Shown: positions 19,762 through 37,169 of the stretch, in pieces
Position numbering within the stretch: position 1 is the stretch's first letter
How the letters are laid out: every line of letters begins with the position of its first letter
Assembly (NCBI GenBank): GCA_001001485.1
Contig: LCKO01000001.1
Span: 76,517 to 140,516 of the forward strand
Source of the DNA: Candidatus Collierbacteria bacterium GW2011_GWB2_45_17
Lineage (GTDB): Bacteria > Patescibacteriota > Microgenomatia > UBA1400 > MFAQ01
DNA length: 64,000 nt
Direction: 5' to 3'
Program-made: the position numbers and the translations under genes
The notes under the pieces: model-generated
Seen by the model: only the letters and a program-made list of their open reading frames with translations
What the model was told of the DNA's origin: nothing
Databases searched by the model: none

Positions 19762-19797
19762 CAACCAATAACTAACAACCAATAACTCCCAACACCC

Positions 19798-20118: not shown

Positions 20119-20134
20119 TGTTATTCTAATATCT

Positions 20135-23077: not shown

Positions 23078-23165
23078 TTGTATCCCGACCTGCTCCGATT
23101 CGAGTCCTCGGGACTCTTATCGAGAGTCTCGGGACGGTCGGGATGATTTGCCTTCGGCAAAGCGG
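23078..23165 (+). repeat. R3 hairpin repeat (ATTGTATCCCGAC...GTCGGGATGATTTGCC)
   Basis: Shares its termini with 27567-27614 and carries nested hairpins (GAGTCC-TCG-GGACTC; TTGCC-TTCG-GGCAA). Confidence 0.7.
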
Positions 23166-23194
23166 TACATGGTTTTGCAAAATACAAGTATATT

Positions 23195-23647
23195 TTACGA
23201 ATTGATTAAAACCTGTTCCTCTAGCAACAAACGTAGTGACATAGTTATTTCTGGGTCATTATTGTGAATTAAGTTAGACTTTTCGTCACTGAGTTTTAAT
23301 ATACCCTCCTGACTTGTACTGTTTGATTCTTCATTGTCAATTGTGTTAAATTGGGTCTCAACTGCATAATAATAGTTAGGTCTACCTTGGTATAACTTTA
23401 ATCTTCTGTAGCATTGAGGTGGCCCCTCCTGAGTATCACTTACTAATATCGGTTTCGTTTTTAGATCTACTCCAAAAGCCTTAGCAACCGAACCCTTGTT
23501 AATTACGCGATCTTCACCCAAACGTCGTGTCCAAAGAATAGAGCCTTGATTTTCAACAAGTTTTATCGACTTCAGTCTGAATATCTCCTTTTTTATGGCT
23601 AGTGGGATTTCCGTGTCTAAAAGAGATAAAAGCGTCTCACTATACAT
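23195..23647 (-). CDS. Hypothetical protein
   Basis: AT-rich ORF between the R3 repeat and the first att-like remnant. Confidence 0.45.
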   Translation of the reverse strand: MYSETLLSLLDTEIPLAIKKEIFRLKSIKLVENQGSILWTRRLGEDRVINKGSVAKAFGVDLKTKPILVSDTQEGPPQCYRRLKLYQGRPNYYYAVETQFNTIDNEESNSTSQEGILKLSDEKSNLIHNNDPEITMSLRLLLEEQVLINS

Positions 23648-23667
23648 ATAGGAAATTATACATTGTG

Positions 23668-23745
23668 CCTCCGCGCGGGCGACCTCCCCAAAAACGGGCA
23701 GAGATTCCCAGAGTGTTGTCTGTTATAACGATATTCGAACTTGGT
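23668..23745 (+). repeat. att-like remnant A (decayed copy of the tRNA-Gln 3' flank and 3' end)
   Basis: CCTCCGCGCGGGCGACCTCCCCAAAAACGGGCAGAGATTCCCAGAGTGTTGTCTGTTATAACGATATTCGAACTTGG aligns by eye with 27361-27432 and 31905-31975. It aligns more loosely with 37060-37125, which contains the real tRNA T-arm (TTCGAA core). Confidence 0.65.
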
Positions 23746-23786
23746 TCCAACATTATAGCCATAAATAATATTGATATACTTCAGGT

Positions 23787-24413
23787 ATGAAACCATATTC
23801 CGACATGACCAAAAACAACACGGTACTGCTTGTAATCGACCCGGTAAATTCCTGTGCCCACGAAAAATGCGAAACCCCAGAAATAAATATTTATTTTTCC
23901 AAAATTAGAGCCATGCTTCCCAAACTAGCAAATTTTATTAAAGAATATAAGAAAAAGACAAACGGTTTAGTTATCTATACCACCATTACTCCTTGGAACA
24001 AAGAACACCTTGCTGAAAATCTAAACGAGCTTTATACCGATCCTCGAGCCCGTTACTACTCAGATGACACCACCGGGTTTGATGAAGAATTTCACACTGT
24101 AAATCCATCTCCGGAGGACTTGGTTTTTGATAAAAACACTTATGACGTTTTTACTAATGAAAAATTACTTCAAGAACTAAAGGATAGAAAAATTCACTAT
24201 ATCATTGTCACGGGGATATTTTCAGATGGCTGTGTCCTTTCTTCTGTCATAAGCGGATTTTCCAAAGGTTTCAATTTTGTCATTCTCAAGGATCTTATCG
24301 AGACAACGGATGACGAAAAGAGACAAAGACTCCAAGAGTTGTTAGTCAGTTTTACTTTCCCAAGATTGTATGGCAAAACCATCACCTCCAGTGAGTTATT
24401 GGAAATCTTGTAA
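23787..24413 (+). CDS. Isochorismatase-family cysteine hydrolase
   Basis: 'VLLVIDPVNSC' and 'IIVTGIFSDGCVLSSV' (catalytic Cys context). Confidence 0.75.
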   Translation: MKPYSDMTKNNTVLLVIDPVNSCAHEKCETPEINIYFSKIRAMLPKLANFIKEYKKKTNGLVIYTTITPWNKEHLAENLNELYTDPRARYYSDDTTGFDEEFHTVNPSPEDLVFDKNTYDVFTNEKLLQELKDRKIHYIIVTGIFSDGCVLSSVISGFSKGFNFVILKDLIETTDDEKRQRLQELLVSFTFPRLYGKTITSSELLEIL

Positions 24414-24422
24414 AGATTCTTT

Positions 24423-24719
24423 ATGAACAAAGTTCTTCGACTGTTTTTTATCGCCATAGTGATATTCTCCACATATCATCTGATTCGTGATTTACTCACA
24501 AACTTTGGAATTCATAACTACATTGTAGATTTTGCACATCGTTCTCACTTATGGTGTGGAAAATTTTATCCTTGGGTTTGTCATTGGATAACAGTTCCGT
24601 CAGAAATTTTTACTTTAGTCGTGTCGTTAATAATACTAAGACGAAATAGACCAGGAACACTTGGAGTTTTAGTTTTGATTCAAGTACCACTATGGTTATT
24701 ATTAGTTTTATTGCCTTAG
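24423..24719 (+). CDS. Small 3-TM membrane protein, island paralog 1
   Basis: 98 aa; 'YHLIRDLLTNFGIHNYIVDFAHRSHLWCGKFYPWVCHWITVP'. A near-identical paralog lies at 28848-29144. Confidence 0.6.
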   Translation: MNKVLRLFFIAIVIFSTYHLIRDLLTNFGIHNYIVDFAHRSHLWCGKFYPWVCHWITVPSEIFTLVVSLIILRRNRPGTLGVLVLIQVPLWLLLVLLP

Positions 24720-24721
24720 AT

Positions 24722-25504
24722 CTACTGACTTCCAAATTTTCTCCAGTTTCTATCGGTTCTGGTTCGATGAATCTTTTCGAGTTTACTTTGCTCTTTTTGC
24801 CATTTTAAAAAAGATCCGCGACAACGGACATCTTTTGTATATGCGATCAGCCATTGGGTTAGTGGCCATTCACCAACTGCCCTACATTTTGTAAATTTGA
24901 AAACTACAAAGTCACGATATTTACTCATGTCGTTATTAGAGATTAGTGGTGTTAGTCTCTTAATAATTTGCAAGAAGCATAAATCGACCTCAGGAGTAGG
25001 TGTGAAATCAGTTCTTTTGAAAACGTGACTGATTTTAATTTCAAACCAAGGATAAAAGAGAATTGAAAGCATACTATTCTTTCTCTGATTAACCATGAAT
25101 TTTTCAGCCGCCTCTTTTTGGACAATCAGACTACAAGAATCCGGTGGATTATCAGAAAACAACAGCTTTTTGACAATCTCCCCGGTTATAGAAAATGGAA
25201 TATTCGAAAAGACTTTGTATGGTTCTCTTGGAAGATCAAGGGCTAAAATATCACTACAAACAAGTTCCAAAGCTATATTGTTCCCCAGACGACTAGACAG
25301 ATGGGCAAATAAACCCTTGTCAATTTCGACTGCAATCACCTTCTTGGAAACAGATAGCAAGCCTTCAGTGAGTATGCCACTGCCGGCACCAATTTCCAAA
25401 ACCGTATTTTTCCACGAAATACCAGAGGCGGCAATGAGCCGCTTTACAAGGTCGCGTCCCCTAAGAAAGTTCTGCGATAGTAGTTTCCGCCGTGTTTTGA
25501 ACAT
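24722..25504 (-). CDS. rRNA adenine N6-methyltransferase family protein, Erm-like
   Basis: 'LSQNFL', SAM motif 'LEIGAGSGILT', 'VIAVEID' and 'YKVFSNIPFSITGEIVKKLL'. The C-terminal half runs parallel to ErmC as I remember it ('ISNNDMSKYRDFVVFKFT' versus 'ISHKDKQKYNYFVMKWV'). Confidence 0.7.
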   Translation of the reverse strand: MFKTRRKLLSQNFLRGRDLVKRLIAASGISWKNTVLEIGAGSGILTEGLLSVSKKVIAVEIDKGLFAHLSSRLGNNIALELVCSDILALDLPREPYKVFSNIPFSITGEIVKKLLFSDNPPDSCSLIVQKEAAEKFMVNQRKNSMLSILFYPWFEIKISHVFKRTDFTPTPEVDLCFLQIIKRLTPLISNNDMSKYRDFVVFKFTKCRAVGEWPLTQWLIAYTKDVRCRGSFLKWQKEQSKLEKIHRTRTDRNWRKFGSQ

Positions 25505-25537
25505 GGCAGAGGATTCTGCAAGTAATCATAATAGCCT

Positions 25538-25565
25538 CATTATATCAGAACCTAGTTGGTTGTCA
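25538..25565 (-). promoter_or_regulatory. Putative sigma70-type promoter of the Erm-like gene
   Basis: The minus strand reads TTGACA-16 nt-TATAAT, ending about 33 nt upstream of the ATG at 25504. Confidence 0.5.
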
Positions 25566-25672
25566 ACTGTTATAGGCTGATTAACTTGCCTGTTTTGCAG
25601 GCATACTTATAGTATCCTCACTGAAATATAATTAGCCTATGAATCGATATTTATCAATCATTCTAACATTCA

Positions 25673-25698
25673 ACAAAAAAACCCGCCATTCGGCGGGG
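25673..25698 (-). terminator. Rho-independent terminator downstream of the CBS gene
   Basis: The minus strand reads CCCCGCCGAATGGCGGG followed by TTTTTTT. Confidence 0.75.
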
Positions 25699-25708
25699 TC
25701 ATCTTTAT

Positions 25709-26164
25709 TTATCTGGCACCGAGAATGTAAGACTCAAACTGCTGTGCCACTAATTCCTGGTTTTTTAATAGAGCGTAGAGCACATCCCTTATTGAAACTA
25801 TCCCCACCAGCTTTTTCTTATCAATCACCGGCACGTGCCTGATTTTCTTATCTTTCATTAAGTTCAGACAGTCCATAATGTTGGTGAAAGGAGAAACGTA
25901 GGCCGGGTCAGCCGTCATATACTCGGCCACAAACACTTTTTTTGGATCTACTCTGTCTAGCAATACTTTAAAGGCCAGGTCGCGCTCTGTAATAATCCCG
26001 ACCATCTTCCCTTCATCAAGCACCGGCAAGGCTCCAAAACCTTTATCTCGCAGAATCTTGCCTGCCTCATAGACTGTGAACCGGGGACTGACAGCGAAGA
26101 CCTTTTCCGTATCCAAATGAGATACTTTCAGAACATCTAACACTCTCGACATTAATACCTCCAA
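25709..26164 (-). CDS. CBS domain pair protein
   Basis: Two CBS repeats: 'ALPVLDEGKMVGIITERDL' and 'IRHVPVIDKKKLVGIVSIRDV'. Confidence 0.8.
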   Translation of the reverse strand: MEVLMSRVLDVLKVSHLDTEKVFAVSPRFTVYEAGKILRDKGFGALPVLDEGKMVGIITERDLAFKVLLDRVDPKKVFVAEYMTADPAYVSPFTNIMDCLNLMKDKKIRHVPVIDKKKLVGIVSIRDVLYALLKNQELVAQQFESYILGAR

Positions 26165-26337
26165 TTTTGATAAGGTGCAGAACTCGGTGATTATACAACA
26201 AAGTCCCAGTCCAGGCTCGAGCCCGACCTATTCGTATCATTTTGATACGATTAAGGTATATGAATGATACGAAGAAGTGCGGTACGAAGCCATAAAACCA
26301 TTCGACACAATCCTAAATTATGCGAATAGTCAAAGTT

Positions 26338-26423
26338 GTTTCGCCACCCCCGTCAGCCTCAGGCAGAGTGGCAATCCAGAATCTTGTCATTCCGGTCCGC
26401 CAGTTGGCGGATGACCCGGAATC
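26338..26423 (+). repeat. R4 repeat (GTTTCGCCACCCCCGTCAGCCTC[A/T]GGC[A/T]GAG...CCGGTCCGCC..GGCGGA)
   Basis: The first 32 nt are nearly identical to 27481-27512. Both copies end in a CCGCC-N4-GGCGG hairpin. Confidence 0.7.
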
Positions 26424-26436
26424 TATACAAATTTCC

Positions 26437-26499
26437 ATCTGATATTTATGGATTGAGCCAGCCTTGGCCTAACGGCCAAAGTGCCTGCTTCGCAGGCAC
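26437..26499 (+). repeat. R2 twin-hairpin module, copy 1
   Basis: ATCTGATATTTATGGATTGAGCCAGCCTTGGCCTAACGGCCAAAGTGCCTGCTTCGCAGGCAC. It has two adjacent stem-loops; the second is GTGCCTGC-TTCG-GCAGGCAC. It ends 47 nt upstream of the ATG at 26547. Confidence 0.75.
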
Positions 26500-26546
26500 A
26501 AGAAACACTCTAACTTTATAGTAATCAAGAAGTGTAAAATTCACCT

Positions 26547-27266
26547 ATGGCGATAGAAGAAATTGCAGCTGAAACAGATGTACTCAAAAAACCAGAAGTA
26601 AAAGTTGAGACAGATAGAATAGTGTCGGAAAGCCAAGAGGCTATAACAACTGCGATACTTAAATACGGCTCCTTGTTAGATGAGTCTACTTTGCTTGGCA
26701 TGATTCAAGGAGCTGCTTTTGAAAGAATTGCTCTTGATTTTATTGAGTTACACAGAATTGGTTATGACTCTCTTGACGACAAGCGTCAAAAACTAATTCT
26801 TGAAAACATTAGAGCCAAGTCAATTCGTAACCCTGACGGAATAATTGCAAGGTCTGGTATAGAAATATATGGAGTATTTGAAGTTAAGTTAGACCCAATT
26901 AGAGATACAAATTATCGAGTATCGGATCAGATAAAACACTTTGGAGAAAACATCTGGGATGCGGTTCAAGAGTTAAGACAGCAGGGCAAACTGGATGAGA
27001 TTACCGTTGTCAACCCTGAAGAAATAAAAATAGTAGTTATTCACCCAAGAAGTGCTAAAAACGAATATGTCGAAATGGAAATCGAAGAGTTATCCTCAGG
27101 AGTTCTAAAAGGAACAAAGAAGGGTCGTTCTGATATTGAATATATTTTTATTCCTATTACAAAACAAGAAATAGTAGCTTTCGCAAAAACCATAAAGGAT
27201 AGAGTGGTAGATGGGCTTACTGATGATGTGAAATGTTGGATTGTTCCAGATGAATGGGTTGATTAA
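26547..27266 (+). CDS. Hypothetical protein, possible PD-(D/E)xK nuclease fold
   Basis: 'NPDGIIARSGIEIYGVFEVKLD' fits a D...E.K pattern. The fold call is weak. Confidence 0.45.
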   Translation: MAIEEIAAETDVLKKPEVKVETDRIVSESQEAITTAILKYGSLLDESTLLGMIQGAAFERIALDFIELHRIGYDSLDDKRQKLILENIRAKSIRNPDGIIARSGIEIYGVFEVKLDPIRDTNYRVSDQIKHFGENIWDAVQELRQQGKLDEITVVNPEEIKIVVIHPRSAKNEYVEMEIEELSSGVLKGTKKGRSDIEYIFIPITKQEIVAFAKTIKDRVVDGLTDDVKCWIVPDEWVD

Positions 27267-27312
27267 CATACTCTTTGGTGCACACATAGCCAAATCTCTA
27301 CCATTTTTAGAT

Positions 27313-27434
27313 CTGGTGGGCGGGCGCGCGTCCTCCAGAGGCGGATCAGCCTATGGCTGAGGCGACCTCCCCGAAAACGGGCGGGAAATCCCAGAGTGTT
27401 GCCTGTTATAACGAAATTCGAACTTATTTTCGGG
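27313..27434 (+). repeat. att-like remnant B (with a 31-nt internal insertion)
   Basis: CTGGTGGGCGGGCGCGCG...GCGACCTCCCCGAAAACGGGCGGGAAATCCCAGAGTGTTGCCTGTTATAACGAAATTCGAACTTATTTTCGGG. Collinear with remnants A and C and with the tRNA flank. Confidence 0.65.
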
Positions 27435-27480
27435 ACCATTACTAATCTATTGGCTCACCGCTCCACACTCCGTGTCTCGC

Positions 27481-27550
27481 GTTTCGCCACCCCCGTCAGC
27501 CTCTGGCTGAGCCTCCCCTGCCGGTCCGCCTTTGGCGGAGGCGGAACCAC
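27481..27550 (+). repeat. R4 repeat, copy 2
   Basis: GTTTCGCCACCCCCGTCAGCCTCTGGCTGAG...CCGGTCCGCCTTTGGCGGAGGCGGAACC. Confidence 0.7.
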
Positions 27551-27566
27551 TTGCGCGCGATTTAAT

Positions 27567-27614
27567 ATTGTATCCCGACTGCGGTCGGGATGAATTGCTC
27601 TGCGAGCAAGCGCC
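27567..27614 (+). repeat. R3 hairpin repeat, short copy
   Basis: ATTGTATCCCGAC-TGCG-GTCGGGATGAATTGCTC-TGCG-AGCAAGCGCC. Confidence 0.7.
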
Positions 27615-27688
27615 AGCTATCGCTGTCGCATCTTTATGTTCGCCCGCCTTAGGCGGACGAAGCTCTCTCAATATATGGCTCAGAACAT

Positions 27689-27734
27689 CGTCATTGCGAG
27701 GAGTGCAATGACGAAGCAATCTATATAGATTGCT
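27689..27734 (+). repeat. R1-related repeat variant
   Basis: CGTCATTGCGAGGAGTGCAATGACGAAGCAATCTATATAGATTGCT, with hairpins GTCATTGC/GCAATGAC and AGCAATCTAT/ATAGATTGCT. Confidence 0.65.
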
Positions 27735-27777
27735 CTTCCTCGCCATAAAATATCAGATAGTTAGGAGAAATTTTACT

Positions 27778-27840
27778 ATCTGATATTTAAGGGTTGAGAC
27801 AGCATTGGCCTTCGGCCAAAGTGCCTGCTTCGCAGGCACA
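27778..27840 (+). repeat. R2 twin-hairpin module, copy 2
   Basis: ATCTGATATTTAAGGGTTGAGACAGCATTGGCCTTCGGCCAAAGTGCCTGCTTCGCAGGCACA. Both loops are TTCG. It ends 20 nt upstream of the ATG at 27861. Confidence 0.75.
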
Positions 27841-27860
27841 GTAGATGGTAGAATTCAATT

Positions 27861-28418
27861 ATGAATGAAAAATTACTCGAAAGAGTTAAAGGATTTGAAG
27901 AAACGCTAGAGAAATTTCCAGAAGTTCGATATGCAGGAGATCCTGTACTTAGACAATCAGCATTAGAGGTAACTGTGGAAGAAGGGATTCAGTTAGGAAT
28001 ACTTCTTGGCGAAGTGTTATTGCGTTATCGAGAGGCTGTTGGATATGGTAGGGGATTTGCAGCTCCGCAGATAGGAGAAAACAAGGCTGTCTTTGTCACA
28101 TTTGTGGAAAATAAATTACAGACATTTATTAACCCAAAGATAGTTGAGAAATCAAAGGAAACAAATTTCTATAAGGAACTTTGTTTAAGTTCTGGAATTA
28201 TGTCCGCAGATGTCGAGAGATCTGTTTGGATAGTAATGGAATGGACTGATACAGAAGGTCATAATCATAGCGAAAGATTTGATGGTTTTCTCGCTAGGCT
28301 ATATCAACACGAGGAGGCACATTTAAGAGGAAAACTAAACTTAGATGAGGCAGTAGATGGTGGAATAGAATTTATGCTTTTTGACCCGCTGAAAGAACAA
28401 CTTAGGGACAAAAGATAA
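27861..28418 (+). CDS. def: Peptide deformylase homolog (island-borne)
   Basis: The three PDF motifs are recognisable: 'GRGFAAPQIG', 'KELCLSSG' (an EGCLS variant with the Cys retained) and 'QHEEAHLRG' (HExxH). Confidence 0.7.
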   Translation: MNEKLLERVKGFEETLEKFPEVRYAGDPVLRQSALEVTVEEGIQLGILLGEVLLRYREAVGYGRGFAAPQIGENKAVFVTFVENKLQTFINPKIVEKSKETNFYKELCLSSGIMSADVERSVWIVMEWTDTEGHNHSERFDGFLARLYQHEEAHLRGKLNLDEAVDGGIEFMLFDPLKEQLRDKR

Positions 28419-28419
28419 A

Positions 28420-28794
28420 ATGAGTGGTTTCTCTGGGCAATCAATTATTGACGAAAAAAGTCATAAAGTACGTCAGTATATTTTTGCGCTGATTTGGATT
28501 GTTATTCTGATTCACTTTCTTAAAGACATCACGCAAGATATTCTAAATATACCCACCTTCCTTGATGCCTTTGGAAATATTCAAGAAGATGTTAGCTGGT
28601 TACCCATCTGGGCACAATCTTTGGTATATGGGACAGGAGTAAGTTCATTTCTGGCGGAAATATTTTTATTGATATCGATTCCTATTATAAAAAAACGAGA
28701 AAAGGGATCAAATTTGGAAAAATGGGTCATTGGAGTCGTTATTTTTATGCTGATATATTTTCCAGTTGTCATATTTCTCGATCCGCGCTACTGA
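28420..28794 (+). CDS. Hypothetical 3-4 TM membrane protein
   Basis: ORF with hydrophobic helices. N-terminal 'LIHFLKDITQDIL' resembles 'YHLIRDLLTNF' of the small paralog pair. Confidence 0.5.
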   Translation: MSGFSGQSIIDEKSHKVRQYIFALIWIVILIHFLKDITQDILNIPTFLDAFGNIQEDVSWLPIWAQSLVYGTGVSSFLAEIFLLISIPIIKKREKGSNLEKWVIGVVIFMLIYFPVVIFLDPRY

Positions 28795-28847
28795 ACCAGA
28801 CTCTCCTGGAAGAAAAATGTAAAAATACTAATAGCTACAATACAAAT

Positions 28848-29144
28848 ATGAACAAAGTACTACGACTACTTTTTACTACAATACTAGTATTCTCTGTATA
28901 TCATCTGGTTCGTGATTTACTCACAAATTTTGGAATTCATAACTATATTGTAGATTTTGCACATCGTCCTCACTTGTGGTGTGGAAAATTTTATCCTTGG
29001 GTTTGTCATTGGATTACAGTTCCTCCTGAGATTTTTACGTTAATAGTGTCACTAATCGTATTAAAGCGAAACAGAGTAGGAGTACTTGGGTTTTTAGTTT
29101 TATTACAAGTACCACTGTGGTTATTATTAGTCTTATTACCTTAG
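28848..29144 (+). CDS. Small 3-TM membrane protein, island paralog 2
   Basis: 98 aa, collinear with 24423-24719 with few substitutions. 'HLWCGKFYPWVCHWITVP' is conserved. Confidence 0.6.
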   Translation: MNKVLRLLFTTILVFSVYHLVRDLLTNFGIHNYIVDFAHRPHLWCGKFYPWVCHWITVPPEIFTLIVSLIVLKRNRVGVLGFLVLLQVPLWLLLVLLP

Positions 29145-29147
29145 CAA

Positions 29148-29522
29148 ATGATGTTTCGATCACTTTTTCAAAAAATTGTAAGACAAAGATCTGAAGTTGT
29201 TATTAGTCGCATCTTTCCATTTCTCAAAGACTCAAAAAAGATTTTAGATATTGGTTCTGGGACTGGTGATGTAGCATTTCTGCTAGGGGAACATGGAAAA
29301 GACGTAACGCCTGTTGATGTTAGCGATTTTCATGGTCCTAGACTTGTAAAAACCACGATCTACGACGGACGAAAACTACCATTTCCGAATAACTCATTTG
29401 ATACTGCCATGCTACTTATGGTTATGCACCACACCTCTAACCCAGAAATTGTCTTTGATGAAGCATCAAGGGTAGCCAAAGAATTAGTGGTTATTGAAAC
29501 GTCTGGGGTAGAAAGGTTGTAG
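29148..29522 (+). CDS. Class I SAM-dependent methyltransferase, probably C-terminally truncated
   Basis: 'ILDIGSGTGDVAFLL'. At only 124 aa it ends soon after motif post-II. Confidence 0.5.
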   Translation: MMFRSLFQKIVRQRSEVVISRIFPFLKDSKKILDIGSGTGDVAFLLGEHGKDVTPVDVSDFHGPRLVKTTIYDGRKLPFPNNSFDTAMLLMVMHHTSNPEIVFDEASRVAKELVVIETSGVERL

Positions 29523-29582
29523 AAAAACTAGCCGGTCTAGGGTAATTGTTATAGTGAAGAATCTAAAAACGAACTAACGAAA

Positions 29583-30005: not shown

Positions 30006-30087
30006 ATATAGAAAATAATCAATCGTTATTTTGAGATGTAGCGGGATTTGGCCTATTGGCCAGAGTGAGTGCTACGCAGATACACTA

Positions 30088-31071
30088 TTATTCACGATCT
30101 TGATCAAAAATATGATCAATATCACTCCATCGATTTGCTTTTCCTGTTTTAAAAAAGCTTTTTGGATTCTCTTGTATATATCTAATCTCATCGTCCTGCA
30201 GCTCTAGTCCACACATTGGACACTTCATATACCTATATGGAAATTGTAGGGTTCCGTCTGGATTCCAGTCATAATCGATACCAATAATCAACCACAACGT
30301 ATCATTCTTACATGACGGACACTGACAATCTTCTATAAATGCATCTACATCATCAGGACCAAGCACGACATTTGTCTTTGAGAACTCTTTGATTTGCCCA
30401 GGAGTAAGTCTTTCATATTTGTCCTCAAAAAAAGTTATCTTTTTCATTAAATTTCCTTCAAATAGGTCTATCATGCTTTTGGTGACCTTCTCGAGTCTTT
30501 TCCAGAGAGATACATCAAGTGAAACAATCTTTGGTGAGGCAATGTGTACAGGTCTTTGGGCTAATGGTTCTAAAAACGAATACATAAACGGAAAAATATC
30601 CTTCGCCAGCAACAGATTAATATCGTCTAAATTGATATTTATCTCGTGATGTACAACTTCATTCCGCAGTTTAGATAATTCTAATAGTTTATCCATAATT
30701 GCAGATAAATCTACAAATTGGTTCAATCTTTTTAAGATAATTACAAAATTGGCTGTTCTCAACTCTTGTTTATTATTTTTTGTTCTATTAGTTGTTTTTC
30801 CCTCTAGTGAAAAAATTTTGATAACTTGTATACCTTCGTCATCAATTCGTTCCAAAATTAAAGCAGGGCAGATTCCCTTTAAGTATTCCTTAAATATTAA
30901 TTCAATAGAAATTTGAGTTTTGATCAAACAACTAACTATTCTTCGAGCATCGTTCCCAGATTCTAAAAATTCTTTTAAGCCTTCCTCTAGCAAATCAACA
31001 GAATCATACCCATATGATGTGTGAGTTTCGTCTCCGAACCTAGTTTTTTTGTGTCGATATACGCCTCCCAT
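30088..31071 (-). CDS. Hypothetical protein: N-terminal HEPN-like helical domain plus C-terminal zinc ribbon
   Basis: An Rx4H motif 'LSKLRNEVVHHE' sits at the end of an approximately 150-aa helical region. The C-terminus has 'CQCPSCKND...KCPMCG'. Confidence 0.45.
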   Translation of the reverse strand: MGGVYRHKKTRFGDETHTSYGYDSVDLLEEGLKEFLESGNDARRIVSCLIKTQISIELIFKEYLKGICPALILERIDDEGIQVIKIFSLEGKTTNRTKNNKQELRTANFVIILKRLNQFVDLSAIMDKLLELSKLRNEVVHHEININLDDINLLLAKDIFPFMYSFLEPLAQRPVHIASPKIVSLDVSLWKRLEKVTKSMIDLFEGNLMKKITFFEDKYERLTPGQIKEFSKTNVVLGPDDVDAFIEDCQCPSCKNDTLWLIIGIDYDWNPDGTLQFPYRYMKCPMCGLELQDDEIRYIQENPKSFFKTGKANRWSDIDHIFDQDRE

Positions 31072-31140
31072 TAAAGTAATATAACATCCCCGGTCGCTTG
31101 AAGTACGGAGTAAATAAAATCCACTTATTCAGCGACTTTT

Positions 31141-31728
31141 CTAGATTTCTTCACTCATATCAAGAATATCAACGGGCAAGTCATCCTCAACTCCTTCATC
31201 AAGCATTTTTATTGCTTTCCAAAACTCATCAGGAATTTCGAGACTCCCTATCTTTGTTGTACCTTCTGGAACTGTAACTAATTTAGCAAGACTGAATCCT
31301 GGTTGTTCACACTCAACTATTTCTCCTGGTTTGTCATTTTCTTTCAGAACGTAGAGACACATTAATTCTCCCTGGTGAACTTGCAGGGAAAAACTAACTT
31401 CCTCAATCAAAGAATCATATTTATATACTGCTAGACCATCGGGGGTAATGTGGAACAATAAAAATTTTCCTTGTTGGATGTTTTCGTCAAAAACATGATC
31501 TGTCTCTACATATTGAACGGGTGTTCTGTGTCCTGGCATTACTTCAACTAAGGCCCCATCAACTATTTCATCAGAGACATCTTCATATTTCCAAGTTTTG
31601 AATCTAACTCCTTTAATTTCTTCCAAAACCGTCCACTCACTCGCAACTATTGGTCCAGAAAATTCCTCATTGGCAATAATGCCTCCATTTGGACTCTCAA
31701 AATCAATTCCGTGTTCTTTGGTTGTCAT
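31141..31728 (-). CDS. Hypothetical acidic protein (possibly cupin-like)
   Basis: ORF only; 'VEVMPGHRTPVQYVETDHVF' is weakly cupin-like. Confidence 0.4.
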   Translation of the reverse strand: MTTKEHGIDFESPNGGIIANEEFSGPIVASEWTVLEEIKGVRFKTWKYEDVSDEIVDGALVEVMPGHRTPVQYVETDHVFDENIQQGKFLLFHITPDGLAVYKYDSLIEEVSFSLQVHQGELMCLYVLKENDKPGEIVECEQPGFSLAKLVTVPEGTTKIGSLEIPDEFWKAIKMLDEGVEDDLPVDILDMSEEI

Positions 31729-31828
31729 GGCACAAATTATACTTCAATTGGGATACTCAACAACAATTTGGGAATAATTGTTCTATATCCGATAATATAT
31801 TTATATTAAATTTTTGCGTTTTCTGTCG

Positions 31829-31909
31829 CTTTTTGAAAGATAAACAGATTATTGTGGAATGGGAAAAGCCCTTCGCATCGCTCCGCGCGTGGGCGGGCGC
31901 GCGGGCGAC
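31829..31909 (+). repeat. 81-bp direct repeat, left copy (orphan recombinase 3' end)
   Basis: CTTTTTGAAAGATAAACAGATTATTGTGGAATGGGAAAAGCCCTTCGCATCGCTCCGCGCGTGGGCGGGCGCGCGGGCGAC, identical to 36984-37064. It would encode '..LKDKQIIVEWEKPFASLRAWAGARA', but no recombinase gene lies upstream of it. Confidence 0.9.
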
Positions 31910-31942
31910 CTCCCCGAATGTGGGCGAGATTTCCCAGAGTGT

Positions 31943-32035
31943 TGGCGGTTTACGAAAAATGTCGAACTTCATTTGATTAGCTCGGCCTTCGGCCTCGCTT
32001 GCTCCGGCGCGGCGCCCCCACCCGCCGCGCCTCCG
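31943..32035 (+). repeat. 93-bp perfect inverted repeat, left arm
   Basis: TGGCGGTTTACGAAAAATGTCGAACTTCATTTGATTAGCTCGGCCTTCGGCCTCGCTTGCTCCGGCGCGGCGCCCCCACCCGCCGCGCCTCCG is the exact reverse complement of 35304-35396. Confidence 0.9.
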
Positions 32036-32167
32036 CTATTTTTTGAGCGCGCGATTTTCTCGCCCTTCGGGCGAGCGAGGAAGAAATTTTTAGTTTTCCT
32101 TGCCCCGTCCGCCCACGCGCGGAAATAATTTTAGCTCCCACAATAATATCAGAATTAAATTACAAAT

Positions 32168-32893
32168 TTAATTCGAATTCATAATTTCTGATACCTTGTT
32201 ATTTTCTTCTATTAAAAAGATCCTAGTAAAATTATGATTAATTCCATTAATAGCTGTTTTAAAGATATTAGCGTCAGCCAAAGGATAATTGTTTATAACA
32301 CCTAGCCATTTTTCACCATTATTGCTATTTATTTCTTTGAGCTTTGACTCTTTTTCTTTAATTATTTTGTCTAGTATTAATTGCGTTTGCTCTTGAATGA
32401 CAATAATGGGGTTTTTGTCTGTTATTGCTCCTATAATTGCTTTACGCCTGTTGTCACCATGACTAATTTCATGAACTTCAACGATTTCTCCATAAATTTT
32501 CAAGTTTCTATTTCCAGGTGGCTTATTTTTTCTTATTAACTTATCCAAAGTTCTCACGAGACCTTTTTTGAATTTATTGAAATTTTTTACAGGCACTTTG
32601 AAAACCAACATTATAGATTTTCCTTTAGGAACCAGATTTTTGTATTTATTATCTAGTTGATTGCAAAATTTAATAAGGGTTTCCGTAGAAGTTCTTTTCT
32701 TGCTTTTCTCGTTTTCATCTTTATAAATAGATTCTGCCGTGGTAATTTCTAATGGGGTTTTATTACCACTACTATCGACACAATAGTAATCTGGAGGATC
32801 TCCACCCGGTACTATTTCAAAAGGTGGATATGAGATTGATTCAAGATAAACCTTTATCGACTTTTTCGCGTATTCTTCATCAACTCGCATCAT
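32168..32893 (-). CDS. Hypothetical protein (possible PD-(D/E)xK-like N-terminus)
   Basis: 'GGDPPDYYCVDSSGNKTPLEITTAE'. The assignment is weak. Lies inside the inverted-repeat-bounded segment. Confidence 0.4.
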   Translation of the reverse strand: MMRVDEEYAKKSIKVYLESISYPPFEIVPGGDPPDYYCVDSSGNKTPLEITTAESIYKDENEKSKKRTSTETLIKFCNQLDNKYKNLVPKGKSIMLVFKVPVKNFNKFKKGLVRTLDKLIRKNKPPGNRNLKIYGEIVEVHEISHGDNRRKAIIGAITDKNPIIVIQEQTQLILDKIIKEKESKLKEINSNNGEKWLGVINNYPLADANIFKTAINGINHNFTRIFLIEENNKVSEIMNSN

Positions 32894-33036
32894 AAATAAT
32901 GATTCGTCCTTAAACTGAAGACATTGTGTATAAAAATCATAATCATAAGTAGTTTATCATATAGAAGTATATCTGTTTGCACTATCACAATCCCCATTGA
33001 GTTTTTTATGATAAAGATTTACAATTGGAGTAGCTT

Positions 33037-34338
33037 ATGAAGACAATAATTATCTGGCTTTTTGGTTTGGGTTTTCTTTTAGGCCTTCTTATTACATTAC
33101 TTTTAAGAATGTGGTTGATCGTACCAATTTATTTGATACTGACTTTAGTAACTATTCCTCCTCTACATAATTTTTTATCAAAACGAGTTAATTTAAAACT
33201 AAATAGAGTGAGTCGTTTAATTTTAATTTTTTTACTTGTTCCATTGTCTATGCTAATCGCCACTCTTTACGGATTCGTTGATGGAACAACTACACTTAAA
33301 AAAACAGCTCAATTTTTTGCTGATGACGGTTCCTCTTTATATATGTATCCCAGCTTATACTGGCCCACTGATAAAGGCGGTTATGATGACGCTTCTAAAA
33401 ATCCAGCTATTGCAAGTGACAAGATGATATTTAATGTGTTTGATTTAAGAGAAGGATATAATGCTGGATTCGGAACGATAATGGCTCCTTTTAAGCCAAA
33501 CTTGAGACATGAAATTGAAAAAATATTGAAATATAAACCAAGTAAAATATTCAATTATTCGGATATCGTTGTATTCAATAAAGAAGTACAAAAAGACGAT
33601 AAGAGAGTTTTCATCCAACGAGTCATTGCTAAAGGTGGTGATAAAGTTCGTTTTGAAAATGGATATGTATATGTTAACGGAAAAAAGATTGATGAACCAT
33701 ATTTAGCAAAAGACCAATCAACCTATGCAGGTATTTTTTACAATCAAGAAAAGTTTATCAAAAATTGTGAGGAAATAATCGTACCTGCAAATCAATTGTT
33801 TGTTCTAGGTGACAATAGGATGCTTTCCGATGGTGATAGTAGAAATTTTGGCACAATTTCAGAAGATGAAATACTTGGATATTTACCAAAGGATTATCAA
33901 ACAACATTTTCAAAATATTGGTTAAAGAATAATCAAATGAAGGTTGTAAGTGATGGGGATAGTAACGAATTATTAACTTATTTTAATCAAATAAGGCAAA
34001 AAAAAGGAATGTCTAACTTAACCACATCAAATGATTTAAACATAATAATAAAAAATTATCTTAAAAGTGCTATTGAAAATAATGACTTCTCTAATATCCC
34101 AAAAAAATTAGCCACTCAAAAGGCATTACAGGAAATTATAAACAGAAATCCAATAGGAGTGACAATAATAGAAGGGGTGTATGATCTGGATACTTATAAG
34201 GGATATTTATATTTGGTTGCAGGCGACGCGAATTCCCAAGAGGCACAGAAAAATAGTTCAAAATTTGCTTTTTCAAGCTTTAGGACAGAAATCGATGGTT
34301 GTATGAAGTCTGGAACAATTATTGCTACTTTTAAATGA
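33037..34338 (+). CDS. Signal peptidase I (S26)-like membrane protein with a C-terminal extra domain; catalytic residues look substituted
   Basis: S26 boxes 'IQRVIAKGGDKVRFENGYVYVNGKKIDEPY' and 'VLGDNRMLSDGDSRNFGTISEDEILG'. The expected 'SM.P' nucleophile box reads 'YMYPSL', and the 'KR' general-base position reads 'QR'. Confidence 0.55.
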   Translation: MKTIIIWLFGLGFLLGLLITLLLRMWLIVPIYLILTLVTIPPLHNFLSKRVNLKLNRVSRLILIFLLVPLSMLIATLYGFVDGTTTLKKTAQFFADDGSSLYMYPSLYWPTDKGGYDDASKNPAIASDKMIFNVFDLREGYNAGFGTIMAPFKPNLRHEIEKILKYKPSKIFNYSDIVVFNKEVQKDDKRVFIQRVIAKGGDKVRFENGYVYVNGKKIDEPYLAKDQSTYAGIFYNQEKFIKNCEEIIVPANQLFVLGDNRMLSDGDSRNFGTISEDEILGYLPKDYQTTFSKYWLKNNQMKVVSDGDSNELLTYFNQIRQKKGMSNLTTSNDLNIIIKNYLKSAIENNDFSNIPKKLATQKALQEIINRNPIGVTIIEGVYDLDTYKGYLYLVAGDANSQEAQKNSSKFAFSSFRTEIDGCMKSGTIIATFK

Positions 34339-34355
34339 AACTTTGTGACACCTAA

Positions 34356-35102
34356 TTAAATAGCTGACTGATTTAGTTCTTCAACTAACTTTTGCGATTT
34401 CTCCATTAGTCGTTTTTCGTTATAATCTGGGGATATATTCAAAGATGCTCCTAATACTACCAAAGAAAACAGTAAGGTATTAAATAATCTTTTGAGTCCC
34501 ATTTTAAGTATGTCATCAGAATATAATTGCGGGCCCATAATAAGCTCGTGGTTATTTTGGGAAGTACGAATATTATTTTTTGTGATATCGTAAATTACAT
34601 TCGGATTATTGTGTAAAAAACGAGAAGACTCTTTGAATAAATTTAGAAAAACGATTTTGTGCCATTTGACTTGTTTTGCCTTTTGTTTGTCAGAAATAAA
34701 AACTTTTCCATCCTCTTCAACTCGTTTTAACATAGCCTCAATTTTATGATTTCTGAAAAAATTTCGGTAGTTCGTAGTGCGATATTCAATTTCTGTATCT
34801 GGAAATTCCTTAAAATAAGCAGAAAGTATAACTGCCTCCGCCACTACTCTTATCATGATTTCTGATGATCGGATATATCCGGAACTCAACAAATAAAAGG
34901 CGTTATCCATCAATGGTAAGGTTTGAGAGAGTAGAATTAGCAATGTCCAATTAGGATATTCGTTATCCTTTACTTTTCCTGATGTTGCCTGTAGAAATGA
35001 AGTGTAAACTTCAAGTAATTGATTAAACAAAATTTCTTCGTTTTGAAACTTTGTTTTGAATGCAGATAAAATAGTTTTTTCTTCTTTATCAAAAATTCCC
35101 AT
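34356..35102 (-). CDS. Hypothetical all-helical protein
   Basis: ORF only; lies inside the inverted-repeat-bounded segment. Confidence 0.45.
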   Translation of the reverse strand: MGIFDKEEKTILSAFKTKFQNEEILFNQLLEVYTSFLQATSGKVKDNEYPNWTLLILLSQTLPLMDNAFYLLSSGYIRSSEIMIRVVAEAVILSAYFKEFPDTEIEYRTTNYRNFFRNHKIEAMLKRVEEDGKVFISDKQKAKQVKWHKIVFLNLFKESSRFLHNNPNVIYDITKNNIRTSQNNHELIMGPQLYSDDILKMGLKRLFNTLLFSLVVLGASLNISPDYNEKRLMEKSQKLVEELNQSAI

Positions 35103-35162
35103 ATCTTATTTTATCATTTTTGTTCGCTTGTAGTTTTATTTGAAAAAGTTTATATTAAATTC

Positions 35163-35248
35163 GGAACCAGTAGTTTACAGATTGTCTTTTTTAATGGCGC
35201 ACTCGTCAGCAAGGAGACAGTCTAAGCTGGTTCCAACGGTGCGCCATT
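35163..35248 (+). ncRNA. Candidate structured RNA or DNA element with pseudoknot-type interleaved complementarity
   Basis: Three pairings: GGAACCAG (35163-70) with CTGGTTCC (35227-34); AGATTGTCT (35179-87) with AGACAGTCT (35215-23; one G-T pair that is a wobble only on the + strand); AATGGCGCAC (35193-202) with GTGCGCCATT (35239-48). Confidence 0.3.
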
Positions 35249-35303
35249 TAAAATTTTTGCGTTTTTTTAGTCGCTTTCAGTGACTTTTACGAGCCGACAG
35301 TTT

Positions 35304-35396
35304 CGGAGGCGCGGCGGGTGGGGGCGCCGCGCCGGAGCAAGCGAGGCCGAAGGCCGAGCTAATCAAATGAAGTTCGACATTTTTCGTAAACCGCCA
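35304..35396 (-). repeat. 93-bp perfect inverted repeat, right arm
   Basis: Exact reverse complement of 31943-32035. Its outer flank (35397-35470) is a degenerate inverted copy of the GGGCGGGCGCG..ACCTCCC att-like flank. Confidence 0.9.
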
Positions 35397-35601
35397 GCCA
35401 GTAAAGAGAAGAAAGAGATTGGGAGGTAGCGCTTTCCGCGCCCGCCTCCGCGGAAAGCGCGTCAAATCCGCCTTTTTTGAAACTTGCGGACAGGCGCCGA
35501 AAAAAGAAGGAAGAAAAAACGCAAAAATTGGGCTTCTTGAAAGAAGCCCTGCTCACTATCGTTCGCTTAAAGAACTTTTAGGAGATAAGATATAAAACGA
35601 C

Positions 35602-37158
35602 ATGATTAAATACATCGCCTATTGCAGGAAATCTACAGACGAACCAGACAGACAAATTTTGTCTATTGAGGCGCAAGTTGCCGAACTTGAGGAATTCGCC
35701 GCAAAGGAGAATTTAAAAATAGTTTCTTTCATTACTGAGAGTAAAACTGCCAAAGAGCCGGGAAGACAGAAATTTGCGGAGGTTTTGGAAAAGATTGAAA
35801 ACGGCGGAGCCGCCGGTATCATCTCGTGGCATCCAGACAGACTTGCAAGAAATTCTGTTGATGGCGGAAAGATTATCTATTTATTGGATACAGGAAAATT
35901 GCTTGATTTAAAATTTCCGTCTTTTTGGTTTGAAAATACACCGCAAGGCAAGTTTATGTTAGGAATGGCCTTTAATCAGTCTAAGTATTATGTGGATAAT
36001 CTTTCCGAAAATGTTAAACGAGGTAACCGCCAAAAACTCCGCCGTGGCGAGTGGCCGAATCAAGCAACTTTTGGTTACTTAAATATCAACAAAAAGATCG
36101 AAGTTGATAAGAAACGAGCCAAGTATGTGCAAAAAGCTTTTCAGCTTTTTGCTTCCGGCGGCTACGGATATGCGGACATCCGAAAATTTTTCAACCAAAA
36201 CAAAATTTTCAACAAGTCCGGTCATGAACTCCACCTTGATAAAGTCAAAAGAATTTTGACCGATCCGTTCTACTATGGAGTGATGAGATTTTGCGGCGAA
36301 CTTTATGAAGGAAAACACCAGCCCTTAATTAGCAAGAAGCTTTTTGATAAATGTCAAGAAGTTGTGAAACTCAAAAGCAGAAAGGTTAAAAACAACAAAC
36401 ATCTTTTTGATTTTCTGGGACTTGTAAAGTGCGGCGAATGTGGCGGCGCAATCACCGCTGAAATGCATACAAAGAATTACAAACGAACTAATAGAACGGT
36501 TGAGTATGTATATTACCGTTGTTCAAAAAAGAAAGGTGCTTGCTCGCAAAAATATATTGATAAAGAGGAAATTCAGAAACAACTAAAAGAGATTGTTTTG
36601 CGAGCATCTCTGCCGCCGCACGCCGCCAAAAAATTTCTTGAGTGGGCGGATAAAGACGTAAGTCAAGAAAAGGATAAATCATCGAGAATTATTTCGACTT
36701 ATCAACTGCAACTCAAGGAAACTGAGGAGAAAACTGATCGTTTGCTTGAAGGATATTTAGACAAGATAATTTCTCCTGAAGATTACCAAAAGAAAAAGAA
36801 CGAACTGGTTGAAACAAAATCGCTTCTAAGTTCCAAAATTAAGGAGATTTCTACAAACGGCGTTGAATGGCTCGAACCTTTCCAGGAATTCGTAAATAGT
36901 GCGCTTTCAGCGCAAAAAATCGCGCGCAAGGGTTCCGCGGACTCAGAACTGCGGTTCTTCGTCCAAAACATCGGTTCGAACTTCTTTTTGAAAGATAAAC
37001 AGATTATTGTGGAATGGGAAAAGCCCTTCGCATCGCTCCGCGCGTGGGCGGGCGCGCGGGCGACTGACCCCGTTCCTACCGAAATGTCCCGAAGTGTTGC
37101 CGGACTAGGACTCGAACCTAGAATATTCGCCTTCAGAGGGCGACGTCCTACCAATTAG
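35602..37158 (+). CDS. Large serine recombinase (resolvase/invertase N-domain + recombinase domain + zinc ribbon + coiled coil)
   Basis: 'IAYCRKSTDEPDRQILSIEAQ' (Ser nucleophile context), 'SWHPDRLARN' and zinc ribbon 'CGECGG...YYRCSKKKGACSQ'. The ORF tail reads through the att repeat into the antisense of tRNA-Gln, so the last 40 aa or so are probably fortuitous. Confidence 0.85.
   Translation: MIKYIAYCRKSTDEPDRQILSIEAQVAELEEFAAKENLKIVSFITESKTAKEPGRQKFAEVLEKIENGGAAGIISWHPDRLARNSVDGGKIIYLLDTGKLLDLKFPSFWFENTPQGKFMLGMAFNQSKYYVDNLSENVKRGNRQKLRRGEWPNQATFGYLNINKKIEVDKKRAKYVQKAFQLFASGGYGYADIRKFFNQNKIFNKSGHELHLDKVKRILTDPFYYGVMRFCGELYEGKHQPLISKKLFDKCQEVVKLKSRKVKNNKHLFDFLGLVKCGECGGAITAEMHTKNYKRTNRTVEYVYYRCSKKKGACSQKYIDKEEIQKQLKEIVLRASLPPHAAKKFLEWADKDVSQEKDKSSRIISTYQLQLKETEEKTDRLLEGYLDKIISPEDYQKKKNELVETKSLLSSKIKEISTNGVEWLEPFQEFVNSALSAQKIARKGSADSELRFFVQNIGSNFFLKDKQIIVEWEKPFASLRAWAGARATDPVPTEMSRSVAGLGLEPRIFAFRGRRPTN
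36984..37064 (+). repeat. 81-bp direct repeat, right copy (true recombinase 3' end plus att flank)
   Basis: Identical to 31829-31909. Confidence 0.9.
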
Positions 37159-37169
37159 ACGATCCGGCA
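37097..37169 (-). tRNA. tRNA-Gln (anticodon CUG), no encoded CCA
   Basis: Hand-folded from the reverse complement: TGCCGGA TC GTCT AATTGGTA GGAC G TCGCC CTCTGAA GGCGA ATATT CTAGG TTCGAGT CCTAG TCCGGCA A. It has a 7-bp acceptor stem, a GTTCGAGTC T-loop and a CU-CUG-AA anticodon loop. Confidence 0.85.

Follow-up and report, generated by a model that had tools for sequence, protein, structure and literature searches.

Integration into tRNA genes is treated as a hallmark of tyrosine integrases. Here, we analyse a 64,000-nucleotide stretch from the uncultured groundwater organism Candidatus Collierbacteria bacterium GW2011_GWB2_45_17 (contig LCKO01000001.1; hereafter the window), a member of the Candidate Phyla Radiation (CPR, Patescibacteria), in which accessory genes and repeated attachment-like (att-like) sites are arrayed beside a tRNA-Gln(CUG) gene together with the gene of a large serine recombinase (LSR). 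New in this locus are a tRNA-associated island array attributable to a serine, not a tyrosine, integrase, and a recombinase family with an undescribed three-site architecture. Full-text searches of the literature returned neither this LSR family nor any account of LSRs that target tRNA genes in CPR.

The closest described parallel is the staphylococcal cassette chromosome (SCC), including SCCmec, whose Ccr LSRs build up tandem cassettes at rlmH and mobilise them (PMC11470126). In SCCmec (CcrAB, CcrC) and the Enterococcus cassette chromosome, LSR insertion takes place at the 3' end of a conserved housekeeping gene, and many SCC cassettes are recombinase-less and bounded by repeated att sites (PMC11470126, PMC6222049). 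Insertion by an LSR at the 3' end of one gene, tandem stacking and recombinase-less cassettes are shared with the present locus, a functional resemblance only. The target differs, being the end of a tRNA gene (11 types in the family) and not rlmH (orfX), as do the enzyme, encoded by one LSR gene without a CcrA/CcrB pair or CcrC, and the elements, which are tiny (cargo of 0.8-8.9 kb) and carry an inverted full copy of the element's own site, attP, upstream of the LSR gene. To our knowledge, this inverted attP copy has no counterpart in SCC.

With phage-type serine integrases (Listeria A118/LI, Bxb1, phiC31, SPbeta) the LSR shares the domain set, i.e. catalytic, recombinase and zinc-ribbon domains with a coiled coil, and its sites share a short crossover core, the dyad symmetry of attP and a DNA motif that host sites have ~5 bp nearer to their centre than element sites do (PMC3783163). 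Unlike in these systems, there are no phage genes, no IMG/VR relatives and no conserved second gene resembling a directionality factor, the separate protein on which serine integrases depend for excision, their attP x attB reaction being unidirectional; the junctions would imply insertion into an attR-type site, with the left half of the target unconstrained; and the LSR gene shares sequence with its own P arm and extends into the tRNA. Islands and prophages inserted by tyrosine integrases in tRNA genes (P4-like and similar, tandem arrays at a single tRNA included) resemble the array in 3'-end insertion that leaves the tRNA intact, in a tRNA-proximal recombinase gene, in content that varies between relatives and in older, decayed units lying away from the tRNA. 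Here, however, the enzyme is a serine recombinase, the core comprises 4-9 nt at the discriminator instead of tens of tRNA nucleotides, and no tRNA 3' fragment is duplicated, the repeats being recombinase-gene ends and element arms.

We propose that the 14-kb region is likely a 3'-end integration hotspot of tRNA-Gln(CUG), filled by serial insertion of small elements of a CPR-wide, tRNA-targeting LSR family. The array members are documented by the sites themselves, a family-wide architecture, LSR-free relatives, a hybrid junction and a chimeric LSR gene. The target gene, which an earlier note on this DNA had folded by hand on the minus strand, was recovered there by ARAGORN (37096-37169) and by the Rfam tRNA model (37097-37169, 65 bits). 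Its 3' end, i.e. the acceptor and T-arm, is the B'-type half-site of the integration target, and comparison of the R, M and L sites of related loci places the crossover core GTTG at 37096-37099, at the tRNA discriminator. The LSR gene (35602-37158, plus strand, 518 aa; delimited using Pfam, homologues and sliding-window identities) enters the tRNA-Gln gene by 60 nt and terminates inside it. Its product has Resolvase, Recombinase and Zn_ribbon_recom domains (Pfam), with a resolvase-type catalytic domain carrying the nucleophilic serine (PF00239, E=4e-21, residues 5-151) followed in the C-terminal part by PF07508 (residues 171-256) and PF13408 (residues 272-330). The translation shows the motif YCRKSTDE...HPDRLARN, and residues ~340-440 are, by eye, heptad-rich, forming a putative embedded coiled coil. 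The protein is not detectably close to characterised LSRs, and a PDB search gave no close solved structure for the 518 residues, only weak matches confined to N-terminal LSR catalytic domains. In Pfam scans of the open reading frames (ORFs) of the island it is the only recombinase, located in the tRNA-proximal unit as previously noted.

A pattern derived from the att-like copies themselves, GGCGAC-N3-CCC-N16-TCCCRRAGTGTTG, has exactly four matches in the window, all on the plus strand (23678, 27361, 31904 and 37059), vs none in 100 shuffles, and a second pattern (AGTGTTG-N10-18-TCGAAC) returns the same four places. The copies at 23678-23742 and 27361-27425 are 89% identical to each other, and that at 31904-31968 reaches 63%. 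Most of what the earlier note had claimed about these copies holds: they are co-oriented, their spacings of 3683, 4543 and 5155 nt match its intervals of about 3.6, 4.5 and 5.2 kb, the 31-nt insertion in the 27.3-kb copy is real, and the intervening DNA is AT-rich (G+C of 0.31-0.40 in the island vs ~0.43-0.45 in the flanks). Its four direct copies stand, but it missed the chimerism of the LSR gene and a fifth, inverted copy at 35304-35530, just upstream of that gene. Through the latter, 31943-32035 and 35304-35396 form a perfect 93-bp inverted repeat enclosing 3268 nt. A transposon bounded by these inverted repeats was considered and rejected, as there is neither a target-site duplication nor a transposase. 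The 81-bp repeat X, identified at 31829-31909 and 36984-37064 by a repeat finder (100% identity), is indeed the 3' end of the LSR gene, with a GC hairpin. As evidence of recent duplication it fails, since X is ultraconserved and equally identical (100%) in L005, a different genus-level genome (RarA 76%), and 99% identical in L030; the identity of the two copies is therefore no sign of recency. The segment m that follows X is, in contrast, hypervariable between loci.

The copies could alternatively belong to a generic intergenic repeat or terminator family, i.e. GC-rich hairpins like repetitive extragenic palindromic (REP) or miniature inverted-repeat transposable elements (MITE), or be tRNA 3' ends displaced by a lost tyrosine integrase; we regard both as highly improbable. 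The genome does hold GC-rich hairpin repeat families, and X and the a arms described below contain GC hairpins with UUCG-like loops as well as T-rich, terminator-like tracts. The att-like family, on the other hand, is restricted to 13.5 kb adjoining the tRNA with all direct copies co-oriented, no member was found elsewhere in the 64-kb window, and the same arms lie at the ends of LSR elements in dozens of other genomes. The generic GC-rich hairpins, such as those starting at 26463, 27803, 30047 and 58772, are a different family. Structured RNA in the GC-rich UUCG-hairpin stretches was also rejected, as Rfam reports only the tRNA in the region at gathering and E-value thresholds.

Three groups of hairpins were observed separately. 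The GC-rich double hairpins (..GGCCAAAGTGCCTGCTTCGCAGGCACA..), distinct from the att-like copies and resembling a REP/terminator-type element, are intergenic in and out of the island (26463-26501, 27803-27841, 30047-30085 and 58772-58810) and also occur in L005 (1316-1345 and 7218-7247). A dispersed hairpin, CGTCATTGCGAGGARCGAAGYGACG, has three copies with 76-79% identity (1094-1135, 15414-15455 and 27681-27722). The hairpin GTAGGGGTTTCATTTATGAAACCC is present as identical 34-nt copies at 12321-12354 and 12387-12420 and, at 74%, at 12028-12061, all within 400 nt.

Each direct att-like copy is a junction, in which the 3' end of an LSR gene (b, the P arm) is followed by a 4-6-bp core, GTTG, and then by either the tRNA or an a arm (P'); each older copy retains the final 50-60 nt of an LSR gene on its left side. 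Two module types meet in the window. Type 1 has the tail b1, composed of X and the 33-nt m, the arm a1 and the core GTTG (examples L005, L030, L031 and L032), and type 2 has the tail b2, the arm a2 and the core GCTG (L006, L008-L027). The sites were delimited using repeats and homologous loci, with patterns in addition for sites A and C. Site A (36984-37099, plus strand), next to the tRNA, is an attR-type junction b1/tRNA, with X at 36984-37064 and m2, the hypervariable P half-site, at 37065-37097, then the core GTTG. Site B (31806-32035, plus strand) is a hybrid, X.m1/a2, in which T-rich AAATTTTTGCGTTTTCTGTCG (31806-31828), X (31829-31909), m1 (31910-31942) and a2 (31943-32035) follow each other, with the core GTTG at 31941-31944. 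Site C (27313-27560, plus strand) is a b/a1 junction with shortened X.m/a1, containing the last ~22 nt of X with the 31-nt insertion, an m variant, the core GTTG at 27398-27401 and a long a1 arm that is 95-98% identical to the a arms of L005, L031, L032 and L092; a1-distal sequence beyond the site extends to ~27840 and has a partial duplicate at 26338-26500. Site D (23662-23745, plus strand; defined by repeats, patterns and comparison to L031) is the most decayed b/a1 junction, with X lacking the hairpin (CCTCCGCGCGGGCGAC), an m variant, the core GTTG at 23715-23718 and ~29 nt of a1 left, and the identical truncation of X is found at the left end of the L031 element. Finally, site E (35249-35530, minus strand; identified through repeat comparison) is an inverted attP-type module b2/a2 upstream of the LSR gene, with the a2 arm at 35304-35396 and the b2 arm at 35397-35530, while 35249-35303 comprises a hairpin as well as a T-rich motif and 17 nt copied from LSR coding sequence, the latter two bounding the module. 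The b2 arm is 92-98% identical to the modules of L008-L027, and the site is homologous to the module upstream of nearly every LSR in the family.

A single crossover within GTGTTG would leave a pair of junctions like sites B and A. X and m1 of site B are 99% identical over 114 nt to L030, where they form the end of a type-1 LSR gene joined to tRNA-Gln; hence, sites B and A would be products of one exchange. The left half of site B then appears to be a former type-1 attR, and its right half the P' arm of an element with type-2 cargo. The crossover partners would have been a resident X.m1/tRNA, which exists in L030, and an incoming X.m2/a2, with a predicted circle junction m2/a2 of CCGAAATGTCCCGAAGTGTTGGCGGTTTACGAAAAATG and a predicted pre-insertion allele m1/tRNA of GATTTCCCAGAGTGTTGCCGGACTAGGACTCG. 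There is no homology flanking the core at site B vs site A, and a switch of partners at the core without flanking homology argues for site-specific, not homologous, recombination. Decay of an LSR gene in situ was considered for site B and is insufficient, as its left boundary is the boundary of the non-coding inverted copies in other genomes, an arrangement also seen in L052.

The same anatomy recurs across the family. LSR homologues amount to thousands of protein matches in CPR/Patescibacteria, many of them with C-termini that are antisense translations of tRNA T-arms. We took 80 related loci from 330 relatives in a one-genome-per-species set of GTDB. In 61 of the 80, the 3' end of the LSR gene meets or overlaps a tRNA gene of the opposite strand, with 11 tRNA types represented; for 10 of the other 19, hardly any sequence is available downstream. 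All LSRs with 75% identity or more to that of the window are located at tRNA-Gln (CUG or UUG), and more distant ones at Lys, Glu, Leu, Pro, Val, Ile, Ser, Arg, Trp or Phe tRNA. Of 53 assessable loci, 46 carry the b arm, which comprises the final ~100 nt of the LSR gene before the tRNA, a second time and inverted, 35-110 nt ahead of the LSR start (median 103 nt, 99.6% identity). An inverted a arm adjoins the inverted b wherever mapped (~50 loci), and a direct a copy marks the far end of the element in 30 of these; the R, M and L sites were all mapped in 30 loci, and R and M in 20 more. The canonical element therefore consists of attL (host/a), a cargo of 0.8-8.9 kb, an inverted intact attP (a'/b'), the LSR gene and attR (b/tRNA). 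The literature searched contained no described precedent for such a near-universal, almost identical inverted copy of an attachment site.

No gene is common to the 30 cargos, and thus there is no candidate directionality factor; a conserved cargo gene in this role was rejected. A free or phage-borne form was likewise rejected, as IMG/VR contains no relatives and phage genes are absent. Three LSR tails that read into an a arm (P0020, P0025 and P0028) were considered as circles and found to be tandem insertions or non-tRNA junctions. In five further loci (L027, L064, L069, L074 and L174) b is joined to neither a tRNA nor a recognisable a arm, the b arms of L027 and L174 sharing partner sequence (GGCACTARTTGAG..); such non-tRNA partners may be secondary targets or rearranged sites.

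Comparison of the 50 loci with at least R and M sites revealed that what the sites of one locus have in common is limited to a core of 4-9 nt, which coincides with the discriminator/CCA terminus of the tRNA and reads GTTG or GCTG(G) at the two tRNA-Gln types, (TG)GTGA at Lys, Glu and Val, and GTCG at Pro. On the host side, the half-sites of different loci show no relationship, even where the LSRs are 83-87% identical. In 42 of 46 loci the TCGAAC of the a arm lies 4 or 5 nt further from the core than the TTCGAAC of the tRNA T-loop, in agreement with the 5-bp shift of a zinc-ribbon-domain (ZD) motif by which the Listeria integrase tells attP from attB half-sites (Rutherford et al. 2013, PMC3783163). 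The TTCGAAC of the window copies belongs to the P' arm of the element, 95-97% identical in L005, L031 and L032. These results overturn the suggestion that the copies are pseudo-tRNA or displaced tRNA ends: with the crossover at the discriminator essentially no tRNA sequence is duplicated, and with TCGAAC at P' spacing the T-arm-like cores are T-loop-mimicking P' arms. They also bear on the lost tyrosine integrase introduced above. A real displaced fragment does exist in a relative, L090, where the intact tRNA-Gln at 5224 is followed downstream, ~150 nt to its left, by an 18-nt copy of its 3' end (TGCCGGACTAGGACTCGG), a true remnant of some other insertion. The window copies, in contrast, lack acceptor/T-stem pairing and have the T-loop-like motif at P-type, not tRNA, spacing, and Pfam scans of the island ORFs detect no tyrosine integrase.

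The targets further vary in the encoded CCA. The LSR-free tRNA-Gln genes of three relatives encode a 3' CCA (TGGTTGCC..; L088 7411, L091 3641, L094 8825), occupied type-1 sites read ..GTGTTGCC.. and have lost it (cf. window 37096), and in type-2 elements the b arm provides TGG (CCA) to the tRNA.

The modules are mixed within the LSR gene as well, with nt 1-1314 being type 2 (80-98% to L006, L010 and L015 in sliding windows) and the part from ~36916 onward type 1 (95-100% to L005, L030 and L031), separated by a sharp switch. Such a chimera would be expected of a mosaic made by homologous recombination or gene conversion (e.g. natural transformation), with the tRNA, X and the a arms serving as portable homology. 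The same explanation would fit X being 100% identical between genus-level relatives beside an m that is only ~55% identical between sites A and B (m2 vs m1, counted by eye), a arms that remain 89-99% identical across different candidate phyla-level groups around cargo that changes entirely between genomes, and a b and inverted b that are kept nearly identical, which requires gene conversion or similar. As an account of the array we nevertheless consider it unlikely, because the informative junctions, those of site B/A and of the 30 loci with R, M and L sites, change partner precisely at the 4-9-nt core and lack homology to its left and right, and because homologous exchange does not create b/a or host/a junctions. 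It probably reshuffles the modules afterwards.

The inverted modules are reminiscent of the yeast 2-micron FLP/FRT system and of Hin/Gin, where two long, near-identical inverted repeats with recombination sites divide the element into cargo and recombinase segments, and repeat identity is kept far beyond the minimal site. The locus could chiefly be a phase-variation-like DNA-inversion system, the LSR flipping the 3.3-kb segment or its own gene, with the direct copies incidental. The perfect 93-bp inverted repeat flanking cargo S beside the LSR gene is compatible with this, as are the inverted b copies around the LSR gene in 46 of 53 loci, assemblies that break exactly in the repeats (L003 ends 6 nt from the site E crossover), and the b copies of non-coding type at site B and in L052, which are in direct orientation as after a flip. 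We find inversion an improbable explanation all the same. A single orientation is present in 24 of 24 source-population contigs, a contig-level count that minority isomers could escape; the LSR is convergent with the tRNA in all 61 tRNA-adjacent loci and no flipped LSR cassette was seen among the 80 loci; both arms flanking the cargo are P'-type, a pairing not recombined by known LSRs; the LSR's own tail b1 has no inverted partner in this window; and the absence of the island in relatives is left unaccounted for. Compared to the described inversion systems, no inversion isomers were observed, the enzyme class is unlike FLP and the size class unlike Hin/Gin, and, in contrast to 2-micron, nothing suggests autonomous replication of the element.

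An assembly artefact was rejected, since the same arrangement is present in MEGAHIT, ANAN16 scaffold, JGI and NCBI metagenome-assembled genome (MAG) assemblies, the NCBI MAG GCA_003539025.1 being 100% identical to the window. Many assemblies of related loci do break inside the inverted repeats. Position 1 of the MEGAHIT contig L003 (k=141) corresponds to window 35391, where the repeat is only 93 nt, and position 1 of L002 to window 27487; the L003 end could be due to branching of the assembly graph at an active site or simply to low coverage.

Returning to serial insertion at the tRNA, several relatives capture stages of it. In L029 and L173 the LSR-b/a' junction continues into further DNA where the tRNA usually abuts, with the tRNA-Gln 1.8 kb further on in L029 and the contig ending before any tRNA in L173, an arrangement best read from the junction order as a newer insertion that separates the resident element from its target. 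A module like site B, motif-b/a in direct orientation, is present in L052, and the L031 and L005 elements each have a truncated b/a junction as their left end. Beyond the junction in L173, 11618-14677 holds an HTH_17 (excisionase-like) gene and a 945-aa SMC_N protein, and may be a mobile element of another kind that exploits this tRNA-proximal site too. Remnants without recombinase are found in L093, which has an a1 arm and a truncated b/tRNA, and beside tRNA-Gln in L041 (7800-8066), where the LSR cassette is deleted between the inverted b arms, leaving a2 ... a2', then 32 nt of inverted P arm and 14 nt of direct P arm joined to the tRNA; deletion of this type appears to be a route to recombinase-less remnants.

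Using the right-flank gene rarA as an anchor to fetch relatives' loci from metagenomes, LSR-free sites, of the kind for which the earlier note had proposed a search, were identified. A tRNA-Gln(CUG) lies beside rarA, without LSR and without a or b remnants, in L088 (RarA 88%), L090, L091, L094 and L095, and the more distant L098 and L101-L103 are likewise without LSR. In L090 the homologues of the left-flank genes (18886-20662) are 3.4 kb from the tRNA, vs 16.4 kb in the window.

The DNA between the sites is consistent with cargo. Cargo S of the LSR-bearing element (32036-35303), enclosed by the perfect 93-bp inverted a2 arms, contains an unknown gene (32168-32893, minus strand), an S26 signal-peptidase-like gene (33037-34338, plus strand; Pfam) and a gene with a weak DUF5677 match (34356-35102, minus strand; Pfam). 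That of the older, LSR-less type-1 element (27561-31805; Pfam) comprises genes for a peptide deformylase, 124-aa and 98-aa membrane proteins, a truncated methyltransferase, an SNase-like nuclease, a 327-aa HEPN-like protein and a 195-aa protein. Between sites D and C (23746-27312; Pfam) are genes for an isochorismatase-like protein, a 98-aa membrane protein, an RsmA/Erm-like methyltransferase, a CBS-domain protein and a 239-aa protein. Several of these genes are cargo in other elements, which supports the interpretation as an island: homologues of 28847-29522 (89-97% aa) are inside the L031 element, L047 has an SNase homologue (84%) upstream of its LSR and L092 an SNase gene as well, and an isochorismatase homologue (88%) is upstream of the LSR element in L092. 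The 98-aa membrane-protein genes are paralogous (24423-24719 and 28847-29144; 84% nucleotide identity), one per older unit, and homologues separate the inverted module from the LSR gene in L024 and L052 and form part of the L031 cargo; the protein may repeatedly travel with these elements. As far as ~20.7 kb, the left flank is core, with RelA/SpoT, a D-Ala-D-Ala carboxypeptidase and GluRS. Here, the ORF at 20135-20662 (plus strand) is built from three tandem 159-nt (53-aa) units, each a C4 zinc-ribbon of topoisomerase type, and is conserved beside gltX in L090 and L046. A class A RNase P RNA at 4012-4316 (minus strand; 105.5 bits vs a gathering score of 100) lacks several helices, has a compact, CPR-like form and identifies the window as bacterial DNA.

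Repeated LSR-borne insertion at tRNA-Gln with displacement of earlier junctions, the core proposal of the earlier note, is thus supported by the 61 of 80 tRNA-adjacent loci, the LSR-free relatives, sites A and B and the LSR remnants. We suggest that it operates as follows. Strand exchange would occur in the 4-9-bp core at the discriminator/CCA position of the tRNA. If the left half of the target is unconstrained in sequence, b/tRNA stays a usable target after each insertion, and a new element would land between the resident element and the tRNA, leaving a b/a junction behind. That any x/tRNA site is still targetable would explain accretion with the newest unit proximal to the tRNA. Older LSR genes would then decay, giving a gradient outward from the newest unit. 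In the window, the newest element (31.9-37.1 kb) would have been recombinant already, combining the LSR body and inverted module of type 2 with a tail of type 1, when it inserted into the attR of a type-1 element (27.4-31.9 kb), beyond which would lie at least one or two older remnants (23.7-27.4 kb), possibly continuing further left. Catalysis of each step by the LSR, the order of events and the irrelevance of the left half of the target are what we infer from the sequences compared.

A number of observations weigh against this mechanism. Characterised phage serine integrases do not recombine attP with attR (PMC3783163), and insertion into an attR-type site is therefore inferred and not shown. 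The left edge of site B has the T-rich motif joined exactly at the start of X, as in non-coding inverted copies, and this boundary is not accounted for by the simple model. The older units are without LSR and have partial sites, so their origin by integration would follow from junction anatomy. No excised circle, empty allele or inversion variant was seen in two sets of contigs (13 and 24) from several samples, all of them, including 24 of 24 from the source population, being colinear with the window and giving no sign of current activity, and the outermost host/a junction of the whole array was not found. The RarA proteins of the LSR-free relatives are only 74-88% identical to that of the window, and these relatives are therefore not the same species. 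In L092, finally, the isochorismatase, 124-aa protein and SNase genes are in the same order, and could be an older shared flank and not independent cargo.

The architecture also invites a more tentative extension, under which these CPR LSRs may work in a way new to serine integrases, in which only the right half-sites, a (P') and the acceptor/T-loop of the tRNA (B'), would specify the reaction, such that any x/a may recombine with any y/tRNA, and the inverted attP may pair with attR as a switch. The products would again be one a-type and one tRNA-type site, and insertion, excision, mobilisation of LSR-less cassettes in trans and stacking could all be carried out by one protein without a directionality factor, resembling an integron built on a serine recombinase and a tRNA. 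Recombination of the attP copy with attR would flip the LSR gene relative to the tRNA promoter, i.e. on or off. TnpX and TndX, the single LSRs of Tn4451 and Tn5397, excise and insert small elements without a separate directionality factor, the single-protein mode that the elements described here would need. Tn4451 and Tn5397 insert at many sites around a GA dinucleotide and are not known to have an inverted attP copy, whereas tRNA targets and an inverted attP characterise the present family; the likeness noted here is one of description.

Taken together, a whole radiation of serine integrases targets tRNA genes, with at least 11 tRNA types used, and target recognition appears to be based on the universal T-loop sequence, placed according to the spacing that distinguishes attP from attB. 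In the hosts, CPR/Patescibacteria, mobile elements and the ways in which genes are exchanged have hardly been characterised, and the cargos represent highly variable small gene sets. The elements are minimal, comprising one protein and sites of ~100 nt that are definable from sequence alone, and the dozens of natural attP/attB/attL/attR sets make site choice, switching of tRNA targets and directionality directly testable. The family could provide new compact integrases with predictable landing sites.

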